Positions 1,002-64,000 of a stretch of 64,000 bases of DNA are shown one piece after another (the first letter of the stretch is position 1; every line of letters begins with the position of its first letter). This stretch comes from Candidatus Zambryskiibacteriota bacterium (GTDB lineage Bacteria > Patescibacteriota > Minisyncoccia > Phycocordibacterales > WO2-35-19). The notes beneath the pieces were generated by a model, which was not told the DNA's origin, made no database searches, and saw only the letters and a list, made by a program, of their open reading frames with translations. The stretch covers positions 990 to 64,989 of the forward strand of contig JAFGCQ010000004.1 of NCBI GenBank assembly GCA_016932555.1, read 5' to 3'. The position numbers and the translations under genes were made by a program.

Positions 1002-1928
1002 TTATTGAATCTTGCAGACTCTTTGAAGTTCCGCTAGATCTTCTGGGGTGAGATTCAGAGAAGTTTGATTATCGCCGCTTGATAGATAATACATAATCGA
1101 ATCTGGATTATCGACATGCTCTAAACCTAGGGCGTGACCAAATTCGTGTGTTAGAGCTAATATCAAGTCTTTTTTATTGCCATATTGATAAACATTTATC
1201 TCTTGACCATTATATTCGGCTTGGTTGAACTCTAGCCCTCTATCGTATCGTTTATTATAATCTCTGGCTATTTGATTGTATTCAGATGCTTTATTGTTGC
1301 GAGTCTTTAAAAGTGTATTTAATTCAACACCCATTTGGTTTACAGCAGAAGCTTCGGTGTTTAATCTTAAAGCTTCAGAGTTTAAATAATGTCTTTCTGC
1401 TTCCAAAGATTCAAATATGGCTTGTAAGGCACCTGCCTGCGCAGGCAGGCCGCCTCTACTATTCCAATCTTGGACTTCGGCTTCATAAGCTGCTTTGCGA
1501 CTTTGAAATATAGCTAAAGCTTTTTCATAAGCGGAAACTCGGCTTTCATATTGGTTTTTAAAACTATTGAATTCCTGATCCAATTTTTTAAAAACTTCTT
1601 CAATAGCTGAAAGACCAAATTCAGTTCTCTGTTTTTGCAAGGTAGCCAGCTGTCTTTCATCGTAAACTAAATTAACCTTAAAATCGGCTCCCTCTTCGTA
1701 AGAAAAAACATTTTTATTCAAGGCCCTCTCCCAAACTTCCTCGGCTTCAAACAAATAAATTTTAAATTCAGCTTCAGTAATACCAAACTCTGTGTCAAAT
1801 CGACCAATTTCGTATTTAAGAGCCCGATCGCAAGGGTTTAAAGTCTTTTCATAAACAAAGTAGCCTGAAGCGCCGATGAGCGCCAAAAGCGCTATTATCG
1901 CCAAGCCATTTCCCAGTTTTTTTAGCAT
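1002..1928 (-). CDS. Membrane-anchored matrixin-like zinc metalloprotease
   Basis: N-terminal TM helix, coiled-coil middle, HEFGHALGLEH zinc motif followed by an IMY Met-turn. Carries the palindrome insert (GLPAQAG). Confidence 0.75.
   Translation of the reverse strand: MLKKLGNGLAIIALLALIGASGYFVYEKTLNPCDRALKYEIGRFDTEFGITEAEFKIYLFEAEEVWERALNKNVFSYEEGADFKVNLVYDERQLATLQKQRTEFGLSAIEEVFKKLDQEFNSFKNQYESRVSAYEKALAIFQSRKAAYEAEVQDWNSRGGLPAQAGALQAIFESLEAERHYLNSEALRLNTEASAVNQMGVELNTLLKTRNNKASEYNQIARDYNKRYDRGLEFNQAEYNGQEINVYQYGNKKDLILALTHEFGHALGLEHVDNPDSIMYYLSSGDNQTSLNLTPEDLAELQRVCKIQ
1432..1449. repeat. 18-nt perfect GC-rich palindrome CCTGCCTGCGCAGGCAGG, in-frame inside a CDS
   Basis: Sequence equals its own reverse complement. 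Same core at 61388-61407, variant at 35063-35082. Confidence 0.9.
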
Positions 1929-23211: not shown

Positions 23212-23433
23212 TTAATTTTTAATTCTTTTAACATTTGATACATGTATCGGTGCGGCTTGATCAACTATTTTACCTTTTTCGTTACTCTTTTTTCTGCGTT
23301 GATGAACTTTTTTAATATTTATTCCTTCAATTAAAACCATGTCTGATTTAGGAAAGGCGCGTAAAATTATACCAGATTTACCTTTATCCTTACCAGTTAA
23401 TACTTTTACTTTATCTCCTTTTTTTACATGCAT
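23212..23433 (-). CDS. rplX: 50S ribosomal protein L24
   Basis: [19 protein letters not shown] motif. Confidence 0.85.
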
Positions 23434-23437
23434 ACTC

Positions 23438-23537
23438 TCGAATATTACGAATAAGATCGAATAATACGAATCCTATTTTTGCTATTAATTTGATTGTTCT
23501 TTATTTGTAGCATTCGATTAAATTTGTGGTTATTCGC
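23438..23537 (-). repeat. 100-nt intergenic element, copy A (between rplN and rplX)
   Basis: 99/100 identical to 33287-33386. Contains four CGAAT motifs about 9-10 nt apart. Confidence 0.9.
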
Positions 23538-32736: not shown

Positions 32737-33282
32737 TTATATCTTCTTTACCTGCAAAAAGTCAAGCTCTACTGGAGTTTCGCGACCAAACATTGGGACC
32801 AAAACTTTAACCTTACCTTGTTCTTCATTAACTTCACCCACCTTGCCTTCCAAATCTTTAAAGGGTCCATCTATAATCCTTACTGATTCATCAAGAGAAA
32901 GATCAATATTATGTTTTACTTTATCAGAATGCATCCTGTTAAATAGCTCCTCTATTTCTTTTTTATCCAAAGGTACCGGAAAAACTCCAGCGCCAACAAA
33001 TCCTGTTACTCGAGGAGTGTTTCGAACCACATACCAAGAATCATCAGTTACAATCATATCTACCAGTACATAACCTGGATAAATTTTTTCTTCCTCTTCA
33101 ACTCGTTTATTACCCTTTATCTTGATCTTTTTTTCAGTTGGGACAATAACATCAAAAATTTTATCCTCCATACCCAAAGATTCTATGCGCTGTTTTAGAT
33201 TTCTCATTACAGCATTTTCATAACCAGAATAAGTATGAACAGCATACCAATTTCTTTCGCTTCTTATTTGTTGTTTGCTCAT
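32737..33282 (-). CDS. nusG: Transcription antitermination factor NusG
   Basis: [17 protein letters not shown] domain and C-terminal KOW. Confidence 0.9.
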
Positions 33283-33286
33283 ATGA

Positions 33287-33386
33287 TCGAATATTACGAA
33301 TAAGATCGAATGATACGAATCCTATTTTTGCTATTAATTTGATTGTTCTTTATTTGTAGCATTCGATTAAATTTGTGGTTATTCGC
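33287..33386 (-). repeat. 100-nt intergenic element, copy B (between secE and nusG)
   Basis: 99/100 identical to 23438-23537, same orientation relative to the operon. Confidence 0.9.
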
Positions 33387-34544: not shown

Positions 34545-35363
34545 TTATAGATTATAGTAGCATAAATCTGATAAATTTTGAAATAAACAAGCTATAGTTA
34601 GAGGTCCGATACCTCCCGGTACTGGTGAAATTGCTTTTAATTTATTAACTAATTCAGTAAAATCAACATCGCCCACTATTCTATCTTTCATCTTGTTTAT
34701 TCCTACATCAATAACTACCTGTTCTGGATTTATAAATTTCTCCGTTATAATACCTGCTTTACCGACAGCTGAAATTAATAAGTCGCATTTTTTTGCAATT
34801 TTTTCCGGATTTTTGGTATTGATGTCACAGCGAAAAACTTTTGCACCTCTTTTTTCAAGCTCATCAGCTATAGGTTTACCAGCTAAAATTGACTGGCCTA
34901 TAACTGCCGCTTTTTTGTCTTTAATTTCAAAATTATAAAAATTTAACAACGATATAACTGCACGTGCTGTGGCTGGAATAATTCCACTTCCTGATACTAG
35001 CCCGTCTACATCTTTTCTTTTATCAATCAAATTTATTATCTTTTCTGAATCAAAACCTTTAGACCTGCCTGCGCAAGCAGGTAATGGTAACTGTACAATA
35101 ATTCCATCTACGCTTTTATCTCCATTTAATTTTTTAATCTCTTCTATTAATTCTTTCTCAGTAATATCTTCGTTAAAATTCTTTAACAAAACTTCTACTC
35201 CGATCTCCTCTCCAAATTTGCGCTTGTTTTTAATATAAATACTTGAATCCGGCCGATCTCCAACTTGCACAATGGCTAAACAAGGCTTGCAGCCCAATTT
35301 TTTTACCCTCCTTATTAAATCTTCTTTAATTTTCTCCTTAACAGGAGCCCCATATAAAATCAT
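34545..35363 (-). CDS. folD: Bifunctional methylene-THF dehydrogenase/methenyl-THF cyclohydrolase
   Basis: VQLPLP and GGIGPLT motifs; carries the palindrome insert ACAGRSKG after LPLP. Confidence 0.9.
   Translation of the reverse strand: MILYGAPVKEKIKEDLIRRVKKLGCKPCLAIVQVGDRPDSSIYIKNKRKFGEEIGVEVLLKNFNEDITEKELIEEIKKLNGDKSVDGIIVQLPLPACAGRSKGFDSEKIINLIDKRKDVDGLVSGSGIIPATARAVISLLNFYNFEIKDKKAAVIGQSILAGKPIADELEKRGAKVFRCDINTKNPEKIAKKCDLLISAVGKAGIITEKFINPEQVVIDVGINKMKDRIVGDVDFTELVNKLKAISPVPGGIGPLTIACLFQNLSDLCYYNL
35063..35082. repeat. 20-nt near-palindrome ACCTGCCTGCGCAAGCAGGT (one mismatch), in-frame in folD
   Basis: Variant of the 1432/61388 palindrome. Confidence 0.85.
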
Positions 35364-43385: not shown

Positions 43386-43460
43386 AAGACTTTTTTATTC
43401 GCGCGAATAAAAAATGCCGCTCGGCTCCGAATAAATTAACAAATATTCCGTTAAATTGCA

Positions 43461-43482
43461 AGCCCCCGCCGAGGCGGGGGCT
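43461..43482 (-). other. GC-rich stem-loop between rpsJ and rplC
   Basis: AGCCCCCGCC-GA-GGCGGGGGCT; 10-bp self-complementary arms, 6 nt after the S10 stop. Confidence 0.6.
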
Positions 43483-43488
43483 TAAGAG

Positions 43489-49588: not shown

Positions 49589-50692
49589 ATGAGGTACGAG
49601 ATAAAAATAGAAAAATTGCCAAAATCTGAGGTAAAACTGGAAATATCACTTCCAGCCGAATTTTTAGATGAAGCTAGAAAAAAAGCAATAAGGAAATTTT
49701 GCGCTGAATTGGAGGTACCGGGATTCAGAAAGGGTAATGTGCCGGAAAATATCGCCATCGAAAAAGTCGGTGAAAACAAAATATTACAGGAAGCAGTGAA
49801 TATCCTCCTACAGGAACATTTTCCAAAAGTGATAGAACAGGAAAAACTTGATATAATTGGTCGACCGAATATTTCTATAACTAAGCTAGGACTCGGCAGC
49901 CCAACAGAATTTAAGGTTGAGTTCGCTACTCTGCCCGTTTTCAAATTGCCAGATTATAAAGAGATAGCAAAAAAATTAAGAATTGCGAATAACGAATCAA
50001 GAAAAGAAAAAAAGATAGAAGTCACTGATAAAGAGGTTGACGATGTACTTTTACAAATCCGGAAAAATAAGGCTCATTTTGATTGGCATAAAAGTCATCC
50101 AGAAGAGAAATCCGCCCAAGGCGGATCCGCCTTGGACGGAGGCCACAATCATCCAGAAATAAGAGATGAGGATCTGCCGCCACTGGATGATAAATTAGCA
50201 GAGGAAGCTGGTAATTTCAAAAATTTGGATGAACTTAAGGCCAAAATCAAAGAAAACATAAAATTCGAAAAAGAAAATAAAGAAACCGAAAAATTAAGAG
50301 CCGAAATTATGGAAGAATTATTAAAAGCGACCAAAATAGAAGTTCCAGATATATTAATAGAGAGCGAAATCGATAAAGCTTTAGCCCAGATGAAAGGTGA
50401 TATTGGAAGAATAGGTGTTAAATTTGAAGATTATCTAAAGCAGGTCAAAAAAACTGAAGAGGATTTGAAGAAAGAATTAAGTAGTAGCTCAGAAAAAAAA
50501 GCCGGCATCCAGCTTATCTTTAATAAAATTGCCGAAGCTGAAAAACTTGAGCCTAACAAAGAAATTTTAGAAAATGAAATTAAACACCTGATGGAGCATT
50601 ACCCCGACGCCTCCGAACAAAACGCCCGCATTTATGTTACCACCATTCTCCTAAACCAAGAAGTATTAAAACTTTTAGAAAATCAAAAATAA
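49589..50692 (+). CDS. tig: Trigger factor, apparently lacking the PPIase domain
   Basis: N-terminal ribosome-binding domain (GFRKGNVP) joined directly to the C-terminal arm domain through a short linker. Confidence 0.8.
50111..50140. repeat. 30-nt near-perfect GC-rich palindrome, in-frame in tig
   Basis: TCCGCCCAAGGCGGATCCGCCTTGGACGGA. The central 18 nt are perfectly palindromic; one mismatch in the outer arms. Confidence 0.85.
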
Positions 50693-57240: not shown

Positions 57241-57285
57241 CCCCCACTCGGGACTAGTCCTCGACCTCCCCTTGATCAGGGGAGG
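57241..57285 (-). repeat. Family B-related GC-rich element (hairpin CCTCCCCT-TGATC-AGGGGAGG)
   Basis: Shares both ends with 57657-57702; direct repeat flanking the DUF559 gene. Confidence 0.6.
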
Positions 57286-58406: not shown

Positions 58407-58451
58407 CCCTCCCCCGTCCAGGGGGAGGGCTACACGAAGTGAGGGGTGGGG
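58407..58451 (+). repeat. Family B GC-rich element abutting the secY stop codon
   Basis: CCCTCCCC-CGTCC-AGGGGGAGGG hairpin plus CTACACGAAGTGAGGGGTGGGG tail. Confidence 0.75.
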
Positions 58452-61153: not shown

Positions 61154-61705
61154 TTAAACTGTTTTCTTACCTTGTTTTCTTCTTATAATTTCATTCTCAT
61201 AACGAAAACCCTTGCCTTTATAAGGTTCCGGTTTTTTTAAGCTTCTTACTTTGGCAGTAAAAGCTCCGACTAACTCTTTATCAAAACCAAATATAGTAAT
61301 GAGATTCTTTTCAGCTTTTACTTCCAAGCCGTCAGGGATTAGAACTTCTACCGGATGGGAAAAACCCAGAGAAAGAATCAACTTATTGCCTGCCTGCGCA
61401 GGCAGGCCATTAACTTGGGATTTAAAACCTACGCCTTCTAATACTAATTTTTTTTCAAAACCATCATTAACTCCTTTTATCATGTTTTTTATATGAGAGG
61501 CATAAGTACCCCATAGAGCCTTAGTTTGATTATTTTCTTTGGGTATAGAAAGATTGATATGATTTTCTTCAATTTTAATTACTACATCATCACGAAATTT
61601 TCTTTCCAATAAACCTTTTGGACCTTTCACAAAAAAAACGTTATCTTTTAAGGAGACTTCTGTACCTGGTAGTATCTTTATTTCTTTTTTACCTATTCTT
61701 GACAT
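61154..61705 (-). CDS. rplF: 50S ribosomal protein L6
   Basis: MSRIGKK start; two L6 repeats; carries the insert GLPAQAG before [12 protein letters not shown]. Confidence 0.9.
61388..61407. repeat. 20-nt perfect palindrome GCCTGCCTGCGCAGGCAGGC, in-frame in rplF
   Basis: Self-complementary; same core as 1432-1449. Confidence 0.9.
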
Positions 61706-62364: not shown

Positions 62365-62384
62365 CGTCCGTCAGCCGACGGACG
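62365..62384 (-). other. Stem-loop between the RT stop and the rpsN start
   Basis: CGTCCGTC-AGCC-GACGGACG. Confidence 0.5.
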
Positions 62385-62419: not shown

Positions 62420-63424
62420 TCAAGCGCTTTGCTGTCTTGAGATAACAACGAAGCGTTTACCGTGTCTATTTTTTGGAATGTTTCTATTTAGTTTTTGCAG
62501 TAGTTTAATTTTTAAATCTCTGGAACGGCAGTGATGTAAAAGACCGTTATAAGATGAGAAATTTTTGTCAGTCACCCTATTAAATATTCTTCTTTTAGTT
62601 TTAGTTCTCAAAACTCTATGGTACGGGAAGCAAATATAACCCAAATAATCGATGCCGCTGGCATATGTTTTAAGGATAATTTTTTCAGGGTGGATTTTTA
62701 GCTTCAAATTCTGCCAGCAAAAATCTCGAATCTTAGGTATGCAAGATTCCAGAAAATTTTTATCAGGATGCATCAAAACAAAATCATCAGTATATCTAAT
62801 ATAGCCCTTTACTTTTAAATCATGCTTCACGAACTGATCAAATTTGTTCATAAAAATATTGGCAAATATTTGAGAAGTCAGATTGCCAAGAGGTATGCCG
62901 CAATTGAAACTTTCAACAATGTCCTTGGTTAGGATGATAAGCTCTTTATCAAAAGTCTTTTCCTCTAATATCCGCAGAAGCTTATTATGATCGACAGATT
63001 CAAAAAACTTTCTTATATCCAACTTCAGCACCCAGATAGTTTTGCTGTTATTTCGGGAAATTTTGAGTCCTATTTTGTGGAGTCTTTTAACCGCAGCATG
63101 AGTGCCTTTATATTTTCTGGAAGACCAAGAGTCAAAGATAAATTTTTTATCCCACATTGGCTCTATGACTCTGATTATGGCATGGTGCAAAAGTCTGTCT
63201 CTAACGCTGGCTTTGTTAATGTGCCTCCTTTTGGGATCACTTATATAGAAAGAAAAATATCCGCCATGCCTGTAATTACCGCTTTTCAAATCCTCATGCA
63301 GTTTGAAAATGTTATCTTCCAAACCAAGCTCGAATTCCGCCACATCTTTCTTGCCTCGCTTATCCTTGCGAAACTCAGCCCAAGCGTCGAAGAGATTTTT
63401 TAATGAAATAATTTTTTCAAACAT
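62420..63424 (-). CDS. Diversity-generating-retroelement-type reverse transcriptase
   Basis: RT motifs 1-7 readable: DPKRRHINKASVRDRLLHH, LKLDIRKFFESVDH, GIPLGNLTSQIFANIF, YTDDFVL, GIDYLGY. Start set at MFEKIISLKNLFDAW. Confidence 0.85.
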   Translation of the reverse strand: MFEKIISLKNLFDAWAEFRKDKRGKKDVAEFELGLEDNIFKLHEDLKSGNYRHGGYFSFYISDPKRRHINKASVRDRLLHHAIIRVIEPMWDKKFIFDSWSSRKYKGTHAAVKRLHKIGLKISRNNSKTIWVLKLDIRKFFESVDHNKLLRILEEKTFDKELIILTKDIVESFNCGIPLGNLTSQIFANIFMNKFDQFVKHDLKVKGYIRYTDDFVLMHPDKNFLESCIPKIRDFCWQNLKLKIHPEKIILKTYASGIDYLGYICFPYHRVLRTKTKRRIFNRVTDKNFSSYNGLLHHCRSRDLKIKLLQKLNRNIPKNRHGKRFVVISRQQSA

Positions 63425-63808
63425 ATGAATAGAAACAACAATAATAAAACAGCGGAGCAAACACCATTCTTTCAAGCAGTTTATAAATTGTATCTATCAT
63501 GGTATGTCAGATGCGGACAACTGCCAAAGAAAGACAGGTTTACCATTGGACAGAAGACGGAAAACTTGCTTCTGGAAATTCTCCTGTTAACGGTGACTGC
63601 CTACCACACAAGCAGCTTGGATTTAAAGAGACAATCATTACTCAAAGCCAATACTACTCTTGAATGCGTTAAAATCAGCATTAGATTGGCAAAGGACATC
63701 AAAGCTCTGGAGCAGCATTGGTACATAGATTATCAGAGAAGAATCCAAGAGATGGGCAAGATGCTCGGCGGCTGGATTGCCAGCACTTACAACAAAACGG
63801 GCAAGTAA
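63425..63808 (+). CDS. avd: Avd-like four-helix-bundle accessory protein
   Basis: LPKKDRFTIGQKTENLLLEIL ... IQEMGKMLGGWI pattern; adjacent to the RT. Confidence 0.75.
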   Translation: MNRNNNNKTAEQTPFFQAVYKLYLSWYVRCGQLPKKDRFTIGQKTENLLLEILLLTVTAYHTSSLDLKRQSLLKANTTLECVKISIRLAKDIKALEQHWYIDYQRRIQEMGKMLGGWIASTYNKTGK

Positions 63809-63822
63809 TTTGCCCGTTTTGT
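63792..63822. terminator. 13-bp perfect hairpin with the avd stop codon in its loop
   Basis: ACAAAACGGGCAA-GTAAT-TTGCCCGTTTTGT. Confidence 0.6.
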
Positions 63823-63839
63823 CTGCATGAGAGCGACTT

Positions 63840-63979
63840 CGGAGGGAAACGACACCGAGATTGTCATTCCGATTGTCGGGGTTATTGCCATTGACGTTCA
63901 CGCCATTACGGTCAGCATTGCCGACATACACCAGATTGCCGTCAGAGGCGAGAGTCGTTTCTGCATCACTCCATCCGGA
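63840..63979 (-). repeat. Candidate DGR template repeat (TR; VR not excluded)
   Basis: On the RT strand: aat gct gac cgt aat ggc gtg aac gtc aat ggc aat aac ccc gac aat cgg aat gac aat ctc ggt (NADRNGVNVNGNNPDNRNDNLG). An in-frame TGA at 63980-63982 lies just upstream. Confidence 0.45.
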
Positions 63980-64000
63980 TCAAAGGCCGTAACCGGACAG

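Follow-up and report, generated by a model that had tools for sequence, protein, structure and literature searches.

The 64,000-nucleotide stretch of DNA analysed here (the window), from a metagenome-assembled genome (MAG) of Candidatus Zambryskibacteria (Patescibacteria/CPR), carries the same short GC-rich palindrome in three unrelated protein-coding genes. This raises the question of how one sequence came to lie, without breaking the reading frame, in a ribosomal protein, a folate enzyme and a protease. The sequence-only reading of the window had suggested a tiny mobile palindromic element. Exact 18-bp insertions at unrelated sites support that idea, and the palindrome, which we call P1, is a non-random, lineage-specific insertion element; its movement by any particular mechanism is what we infer. 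We give a probability of roughly 70% to P1 being a discrete 18-bp insertion element that forms a hairpin and is non-autonomous.

Copies of the palindrome in the window

P1 (CCTGCCTGCGCAGGCAGG) is a perfect palindrome of 18 nt with a G+C content of 78%, built of two 9-bp arms with zero spacer. Three copies are present in the window, at a density of 3 per 64 kb, and there is no further match in it at up to three mismatches:

1432..1449: exact copy in an M10-type metalloprotease gene, in the same frame as in rplF
35064..35081: one-mismatch copy in folD (plus-strand change G>A)
61389..61406: exact copy in rplF, forming with its flanks a 20-nt palindrome at 61388-61407

The description of these copies as lying in an AT-rich background and inside open reading frames (ORFs) is confirmed: the G+C content of the window is 31-38% and all three fall within minus-strand ORFs. 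The positions first given, 1432-1449 and 61388-61407, also hold, while the folD copy, placed at 35063-35082, was one base off at each end.

On the minus strand the rplF copy reads GG|C CTG CCT GCG CAG GCA GG|C, encoding (G)LPAQAG, and the protease copy encodes GGLPAQAGA (GG-LPAQAG-A). In folD the sense strand, CCT GCT TGC GCA GGC AGG, is read in a different frame as PACAGR. Because P1 is its own reverse complement, it yields the same three peptides, LPAQA(G), PACAGR and CLRRQ, in either orientation. As all its frames are free of stop codons and its two strands read alike, P1 truncates no protein into which it is inserted.

An exact addition to each host gene

The three host genes of the window are as follows:

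1002..1928, minus strand: M10-type (matrixin-like) metalloprotease, 308 aa (Pfam Peptidase_M10, E = 1.6e-10)
34545..35363, minus strand: folD, methylene-THF dehydrogenase/cyclohydrolase, 272 aa (Pfam THF_DHG_CYH and THF_DHG_CYH_C; PDB matches)
61154..61705, minus strand: rplF, ribosomal protein L6, 183 aa (Pfam Ribosomal_L6, E = 2e-35)

The extra residues that a by-eye comparison had noticed in L6 are genuine: six residues are missing from 118 of the 120 best homologues, most of which are 177 aa long as against 183 aa here. When rplF is aligned at the DNA level with two relatives of 77% amino acid identity (L122 and L123; loci in other genomes are numbered in this way), a clean 18-nt gap opens at P1, the empty site GTnAAy|GGnrAC corresponding to GTT AAT GG-P1-C AAT in the window. 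The FolD insert directly follows QLPLP and is missing in 119 of 119 closest homologues, which read QLPLP|K/E... without ACAGRS; the same six-residue gap appears against E. coli FolD. In the protease, which has 1878 relatives in the representative library, P1 splits the conserved motif WNxxGG|AP, and none of the 58 representatives aligned carries the insert. The closest relative, L163, has the empty site GGT GGA|GCA. Elsewhere in the protease gene of L163 (2240-2262) there is a GC-rich extra segment, NPPVQAG (CCTCCGGTCCAGGCGGGG), which may be a decayed insertion of the P1 kind.

As far as these alignments go, each tested copy in the window is an exact 18-nt (6-aa) addition absent from relatives. 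Alignment with orthologues had been named beforehand as the way to expose an ancestral loop encoded by non-palindromic codons. That alternative is not borne out: an exact six-codon gap takes the place of the residues in the closest relatives of L6, FolD and the protease. The related suggestion that surface loops tolerate the element agrees with an AlphaFold model of L6, in which the insert is predicted to form a loop at the tip of a beta-hairpin, joining strands 94-99 and 108-113, where pLDDT falls below 50 at residues 101-105; the FolD and protease inserts are placed only as falling between conserved motifs. In other genomes, the site of P1 in dihydrofolate reductase (DHFR) corresponds to an exact 6-aa gap in solved homologues, and its sites in EF-Ts and superoxide dismutase (SOD) to gaps of 5 and 8 aa, respectively. 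From reading the protein sequences, we take further hosts to be L15, L17, topoisomerase I, GatB, Obg, NusB, DnaG and UvrC; GatB, topoisomerase I and NusB are presumptive names based solely on the N-terminal sequences.

Distribution across genomes

An exact search for the 18-mer in a collection holding one genome per species (596 Gb) matches at least 120 stretches. The number expected by chance in 596 Gb is 0.2-0.8 at a G+C content of 35-40% and about 80 at 65%. Since the expectation depends on G+C content, GC-rich matches may be due to chance; this does not apply to the 98 copies that, among the matches listed, lie in loci below 50% G+C, for which fewer than one is expected in the whole collection. 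P1 is also absent from 100 dinucleotide-preserving shuffles of the window, and the motif is therefore far more frequent than k-mer statistics predict, a point on which the proposed insertion had been made to depend.

By our own count, 71 of 120 loci among the matches listed belong to named Patescibacteria lineages. The carriers there include WWE3, Microgenomates, Paceibacterota, Saccharibacteria, Dojkabacteria and many "Candidatus X-bacteria"; those outside the CPR include one Sphingobacteriales MAG with seven loci and one Saprospiraceae MAG. Nearly all carriers are metagenome-assembled genomes, and two are cultured isolates, Litoribacter ruber and Rosettibacter primus. Judged from these matches, P1 is spread over the whole Patescibacteria radiation at many unrelated sites, and occurs in a few Bacteroidota and others. 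Since an exact-match search was the source of almost all foreign copies, ascertainment accounts for part of their exactness.

Viral contigs gave 25 matches, mostly in contigs of 58-67% G+C, which are likely to reflect chance or larger hairpins of the REP type; there is no sign in them of a phage vector for P1. In the literature searched, whose coverage is incomplete, the 18-mer is absent and palindromes, in-frame insertions and Patescibacteria are nowhere linked. TIGR-Tas systems, also considered, are unrelated to P1.

Flanks, junctions and reading frames

Sequences flanking P1 are unrelated between loci, except that a purine at -1 and a pyrimidine at +1 are found in 79% of copies among the matches listed. 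The same bias is present in non-coding copies (75%), which ties it to the element or to its target and not to codons. No consistent target-site duplication is seen, either between filled and empty sites or in the flanks of the listed copies. A GG or CC matching the end of the element lies at the junction in six of seven filled/empty comparisons, but in at most about 27% of all listed copies.

Bacterial genomes such as these are roughly 90% coding. In genomes below 50% G+C, 52 of 94 copies lie inside long ORFs and about 45% are non-coding. The ORF copies are read as LPAQAG in 39 cases (75%), as PACAGR in nine and as CLRRQ in four. Copies read as LPAQAG mostly follow a GAC or GGC codon, for Asp and Gly, amino acids typical of loops. 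The frame bias and the intergenic excess look like selection against insertions, to judge from where the surviving copies lie. Four of about 100 copies are found within 50 nt of a tRNA gene, a weak signal on which enrichment beside tRNA genes was rejected.

Six near-identical L17 genes (L099:1229-1270 and L164-L168) differ from one another at 1-3 nt, and four of the five distinct differences fall at the P1 boundary (-2, -1, the first P1 base and +1). Either the foot of the hairpin is a mutational hot spot or these are Illumina sequence-specific errors after a GGC inverted repeat.

Repeated gain and drift in ribosomal protein L6

A metagenome scan for L6 with six additional residues in the P1 loop, whatever the inserted sequence, gave 14 loci. 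Exact P1 occupies one and the same Gly codon in three divergent lineages, represented by the window, L121 and L156, whose L6 genes are not mutual closest relatives. The junctions are GG-P1-C in the window, GG-P1-G in L121 and GG-P1-T in L156 (56% G+C). The remaining 13 loci (clade L149-L162) carry CCTGCCCGCGCAGGCGGG (KPARAGGG) 2 nt upstream and in another frame, which indicates an independent event. On comparison of these genes, the same L6 loop has received P1 independently at least twice. Loop tolerance and frame together leave about three positions, so that repeated insertion at L6 codons needs no target specificity, and we dropped that explanation.

Within clade L149-L162 the insert has drifted (PARAGG, PARLGG, PARQGG, PTHAGG and PARTGG), and P1 is therefore not frozen after fixation. 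The additional copies met by chance in the fetched loci comprise about ten exact, six one-mismatch and three two-mismatch copies; the predominance of exact ones suggests a comparatively young age for exact copies. A protein search with 53 aa of L6 across the insert brought back only one irrelevant fragment.

Neighbouring palindromes and repeats

The window contains another GC-rich palindromic sequence in a coding region:

50108..50145: GC-rich block in the trigger-factor gene, where the palindromes ATCCGCCcaaGGCGGAT and CCAAGGCGGATCCGCCTTGG, the latter of 20 nt, overlap

Its arms, TCCGCC/GGCGGA, are common to a second palindrome family that adjoins P1 in other genomes. The block may be another inserted palindrome family, possibly related to P1. 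A second GC-rich palindrome, TCCGCCAGCTGGCGGA, is found 40-200 nt from P1 at L066:2079, L097:7450, L105:4962, L107:5737 and L112:5470, the L097 copy being apparently within a coding sequence. It seems that several such families co-occur. In one Bacteroidota MAG, two copies of an intergenic repeat (L105:4923-4942 and L112:5445-5452) differ by an 18-nt indel, CCTGCTTGATCAGGCAAG, a P1-like variant with another centre, bounded by CC..CC. An ORF of about 1180 codons in a WOR-3 MAG (L070:6780-7430) contains, besides an exact P1 copy, the reversed arrangement GCAGGCAGGCCTGCCTGC and half-sites of P1 split by a 21-nt GC-rich spacer.

In five Paceibacteria-type genomes a 5' fragment resembling tRNA-Gln is interrupted by P1 at one and the same position, between nucleotides 9 and 10:

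L027:1720-1770
L037:3525-3575
L038:6731-6809
L042:357-405
L110:715-760

An intact tRNA-Gln is present 27-400 nt from each of these fragments. Removal of 18 nt restores a full tRNA-Gln in L038; the other four pseudo-tRNAs are decayed, with P1 intact.

About 1 kb from the rplF copy, within the ribosomal-protein operon, the window also holds, at 62420-64000, a diversity-generating retroelement:

62420-63475, minus strand: reverse transcriptase ORF with LGNLTSQ and YTDD motifs
63425-63808, plus strand: Avd-like ORF (67 bits, below the curated cut-off of 80)
63830-64000: Asn-codon-rich stretch resembling a template or variable repeat

No partner (variable-region) repeat was found for it within the window. 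A GC hairpin at 62365-62384 precedes the S14 gene. A repeat of about 100 nt with reiterated TCGAATAnTACGAAT motifs occurs in two intergenic regions (23431-23537 and 33280-33386, 96% identical), upstream of two minus-strand genes, one of which is nusG. Intergenic GC-rich stem-loops of non-P1 sequence at 43460-43483, 57265-57285 and 58407-58429 are probably terminators.

Hairpin formation and possible use by the host

It had been suggested that P1 might act as a hairpin at the RNA or DNA level. The evidence is divided: the sense-strand RNA of the rplF copy is predicted to fold at -18.6 kcal/mol (z -3.5), but for drifted copies the predicted fold is no more stable than that of shuffles (z about 0). 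The old insert in clade L149-L162, which we call the frame-A clade, has a pairwise synonymous diversity of 0.18-0.36 at its five scorable codons, compared with a mean of 0.66 over 50 other four- or six-fold codons, of which two are equally low (Fisher p = 6e-6). GC3 is 0.8-0.9 at four of the five codons, third positions change by transitions only, all compatible with wobble pairing on the sense strand, where pairing is kept in 95.5% of cells, through G-U or a restored C-G. No double compensatory change occurs in this clade, no pair being altered on both sides. The folD substitution is likewise a synonymous transition (GCC>GCT), by which the pair in the sense RNA becomes G-U. The old L6 copy and the folD substitution are suggestive of constraint on an mRNA hairpin, and the low synonymous diversity of the former hints at function over pure parasitism; horizontal re-homing could be another source of that low diversity.

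These observations bear most directly on the reading that P1 is mainly a cis element useful to its host, either as an mRNA hairpin or as a 20-bp R-N18-Y site of a conserved dimeric DNA-binding protein, and is maintained by selection, insertion being only the origin of new sites. This is compatible with the insertion element that we favour, and we consider it unlikely, though deserving of real weight, as the principal explanation. It would account for the retention of one sequence across a very deep radiation and for a flank bias that makes a 20-nt motif even of non-coding copies, as well as for the two- to threefold reduction of synonymous diversity with exclusively pairing-compatible transitions in L6 and the single, synonymous change in folD. 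P1 is also intact in the five tRNA-Gln-like remnants, of which four are otherwise decayed, but these cases came from an exact-match search. Against a host role, drifted copies fold like shuffles and compensatory double changes are absent, and in a test of the closing pair A..C flanks were not depleted among sense-oriented copies, being as frequent as G..U. There is moreover no positional logic among sites as varied as ribosomal proteins, enzymes and intergenic DNA, and the frame bias and intergenic excess resemble the marks of selection against insertions.

Mobility and proposed mechanism

Searches for a gene that might mobilise P1 gave the following results. No gene was found to be flanked by two P1 copies in a RAYT-like layout, and nothing recurs between the paired copies in L033 and L094. 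No Y1/HUH (RAYT) gene is found between these pairs or among ten neighbouring ORFs in the Bacteroidota loci. Two unrelated DDE transposases lie a few hundred nt from P1 in one Bacteroidota MAG; P1 is not at their ends and the proximity is taken to be coincidental. Rfam has no family over P1 in the window and 18 loci, save for a weak tRNA call overlapping it in L038. Eight protein clusters at 90% identity that contain P1 include no allele without the six residues, which counts against the insertion-element explanation where recent mobility is concerned.

In the mechanism that we propose for the insertion element, P1 would move as a DNA hairpin. A nuclease or transposase acting in trans might handle the hairpin, or template switching at replication forks might copy P1 through GG/CC microhomology; in either of these specific routes, trans-mobilisation or template switching, we have low confidence. 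Selection would then retain intergenic copies and those that lie in loops and whose frame, LPAQAG, is the mildest. Exact copies would be comparatively recent, the element still spreading, also between phyla, and some fixed copies would later come under constraint as mRNA hairpins. Identity at 18 of 18 positions in different phyla sits uneasily with a selfish repeat inherited only vertically, and requires either horizontal spread or a sequence-specific partner. A bolder version, which we hold only tentatively and think more likely wrong than right, is an undescribed, sequence-defined DNA "writing" or hairpin-transposition activity, shared by Patescibacteria and passed to some Bacteroidota, which would paste a fixed 18-bp hairpin without target duplication, some copies being co-opted as mRNA hairpins in core genes such as rplF. 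If so, we know of no smaller mobile unit than P1.

P1 might instead be left over from something larger: the terminal inverted repeats (2 x 9 bp) of a transposon brought end to end, the minimal derivative of one, or a short cDNA or oligonucleotide pasted in by, for example, a reverse transcriptase or a GG-crossing serine transposase. The two 9-bp arms with nothing between them would fit such an origin, as would the GG/CC repeat at most of the filled/empty junctions (IS607 inserts at GG, duplicating 0 or 2 bp); the retroelement (reverse transcriptase plus Avd) near rplF and the 18-nt indel of a P1-like variant between two repeat copies in a Bacteroidota MAG can be cited on the same side. However, no longer element with half-site ends (CCTGCCTGC...GCAGGCAGG) occurs in 790 kb of AT-rich loci, where solo half-sites are rare and mostly variant hairpins. 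The GG/CC junction does not extend to the great majority of listed copies, nothing connects the retroelement with P1, and the viral contigs bearing P1 are mostly GC-rich, so that chance matches are expected in them. We regard this origin as improbable.

Finally, that the residues are an ancestral or convergent loop, or the palindrome a sequencing or assembly artefact, is very improbable and largely refuted: although carriers are nearly all metagenome-assembled, base differences cluster at the P1 boundary of the near-identical L17 genes in a way that could reflect Illumina errors after inverted repeats, and ORF integrity alone proves nothing for a stop-free 18-nt palindrome that never breaks an ORF, the insert is absent from relatives, the same DNA gives different peptides in different frames, the strong frame bias is unexpected of an artefact, the drifted clade-wide L6 copy has an evolutionary history, and the carriers come from many studies and assemblers and include the two isolates.

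Implications

Selfish palindromes that insert in frame are already known from Rickettsia and fungal mitochondria, and how they move has been an unsolved problem for decades. P1 is a far simpler case, having one fixed 18-bp sequence, exact boundaries and independent sites that number in the hundreds, in very small genomes. What is new beyond the sequence-only reading is, from genome comparison, the spread over Patescibacteria, the one dominant frame and the repeated gain in the L6 loop. Copies inside core genes (L6, L15, L17, EF-Ts, FolD, DHFR, SOD and Obg) make the tolerance of core proteins to insertion measurable, and the mobilising activity can be sought by relating copy number to gene content. 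P1 also creates lineage-specific 6-aa indels in phylogenetic marker proteins, and its inverted repeat with GGC motifs may provoke sequencing errors.

Comparison with known systems

Short conserved motifs such as HIP1 of cyanobacteria and the DNA uptake sequences (DUS/USS) resemble P1 in being frequent in genes and in having frame preferences. HIP1 and DUS/USS arise by point substitution in existing sequence. HIP1, uptake and parS-like motifs bring no change in length, whereas each tested copy of P1 adds 18 nt, and the density of P1 is low.

REPs are by definition extragenic; they are imperfect palindromes in which a 5' tetranucleotide is conserved, and flank a RAYT gene. Like REP/BIME-RAYT systems and REPINs, P1 is a short multi-copy hairpin repeat, and recognition of a single-stranded DNA hairpin with duplication-free insertion would fit it; unlike REP/BIME, it is a perfect palindrome and, in AT-rich genomes, lies in ORFs in more than half of its copies (52/94). 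Prokaryotic MITEs share with P1 their non-autonomy and inverted-repeat ends, but are tens to hundreds of bp long, with target-site duplications and a recognisable parent IS, features that P1, being all inverted repeat, does not have. MITEs sometimes form in-frame fusions (PMC10969869).

The Rickettsia palindromic elements (RPEs), which the sequence-only reading had cited as precedent, measure about 150 bp and comprise ten families with 44 in-frame insertions, restricted to Rickettsia (PMC10969869). The precedent stands as regards selfish-looking palindromes inserted in frame into unrelated, often essential genes, where the protein tolerates the added peptide (PMC10969869), and absent from orthologues. 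Family members are, however, about 100-150 bp long, whereas P1 has 18 nt, encodes 6 aa and is superphylum-wide, so that the likeness is one of analogy and not of membership.

Mitochondrial GC clusters are 30-60 nt long. Like P1, they are short GC-rich palindromes in an AT-rich genome, mostly intergenic and occasionally in frame, and they vary between lineages. They differ in being organellar, where the hosts of P1 are bacterial MAGs and isolates; in being longer and variable in sequence, where P1 is a fixed 18 bp identical across phyla; and in having AG/TAG terminal repeats interpreted as target duplications, where the flanks of P1 show an R/Y bias only. The GC clusters of yeast mitochondria are found in frame in var1, carry AG/TAG duplications and are regarded as mobile (PMC8811140). 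In Neurospora mitochondria, according to the account of Yin et al. 1981 given there, GC-rich palindromes flank tRNA genes (PMC8811140), which P1 does within 50 nt in only 4 of about 100 copies. By analogy, mitochondrial GC clusters and Rickettsia palindromic elements would be the closest counterparts of P1, which is far shorter than either and shared across phyla.
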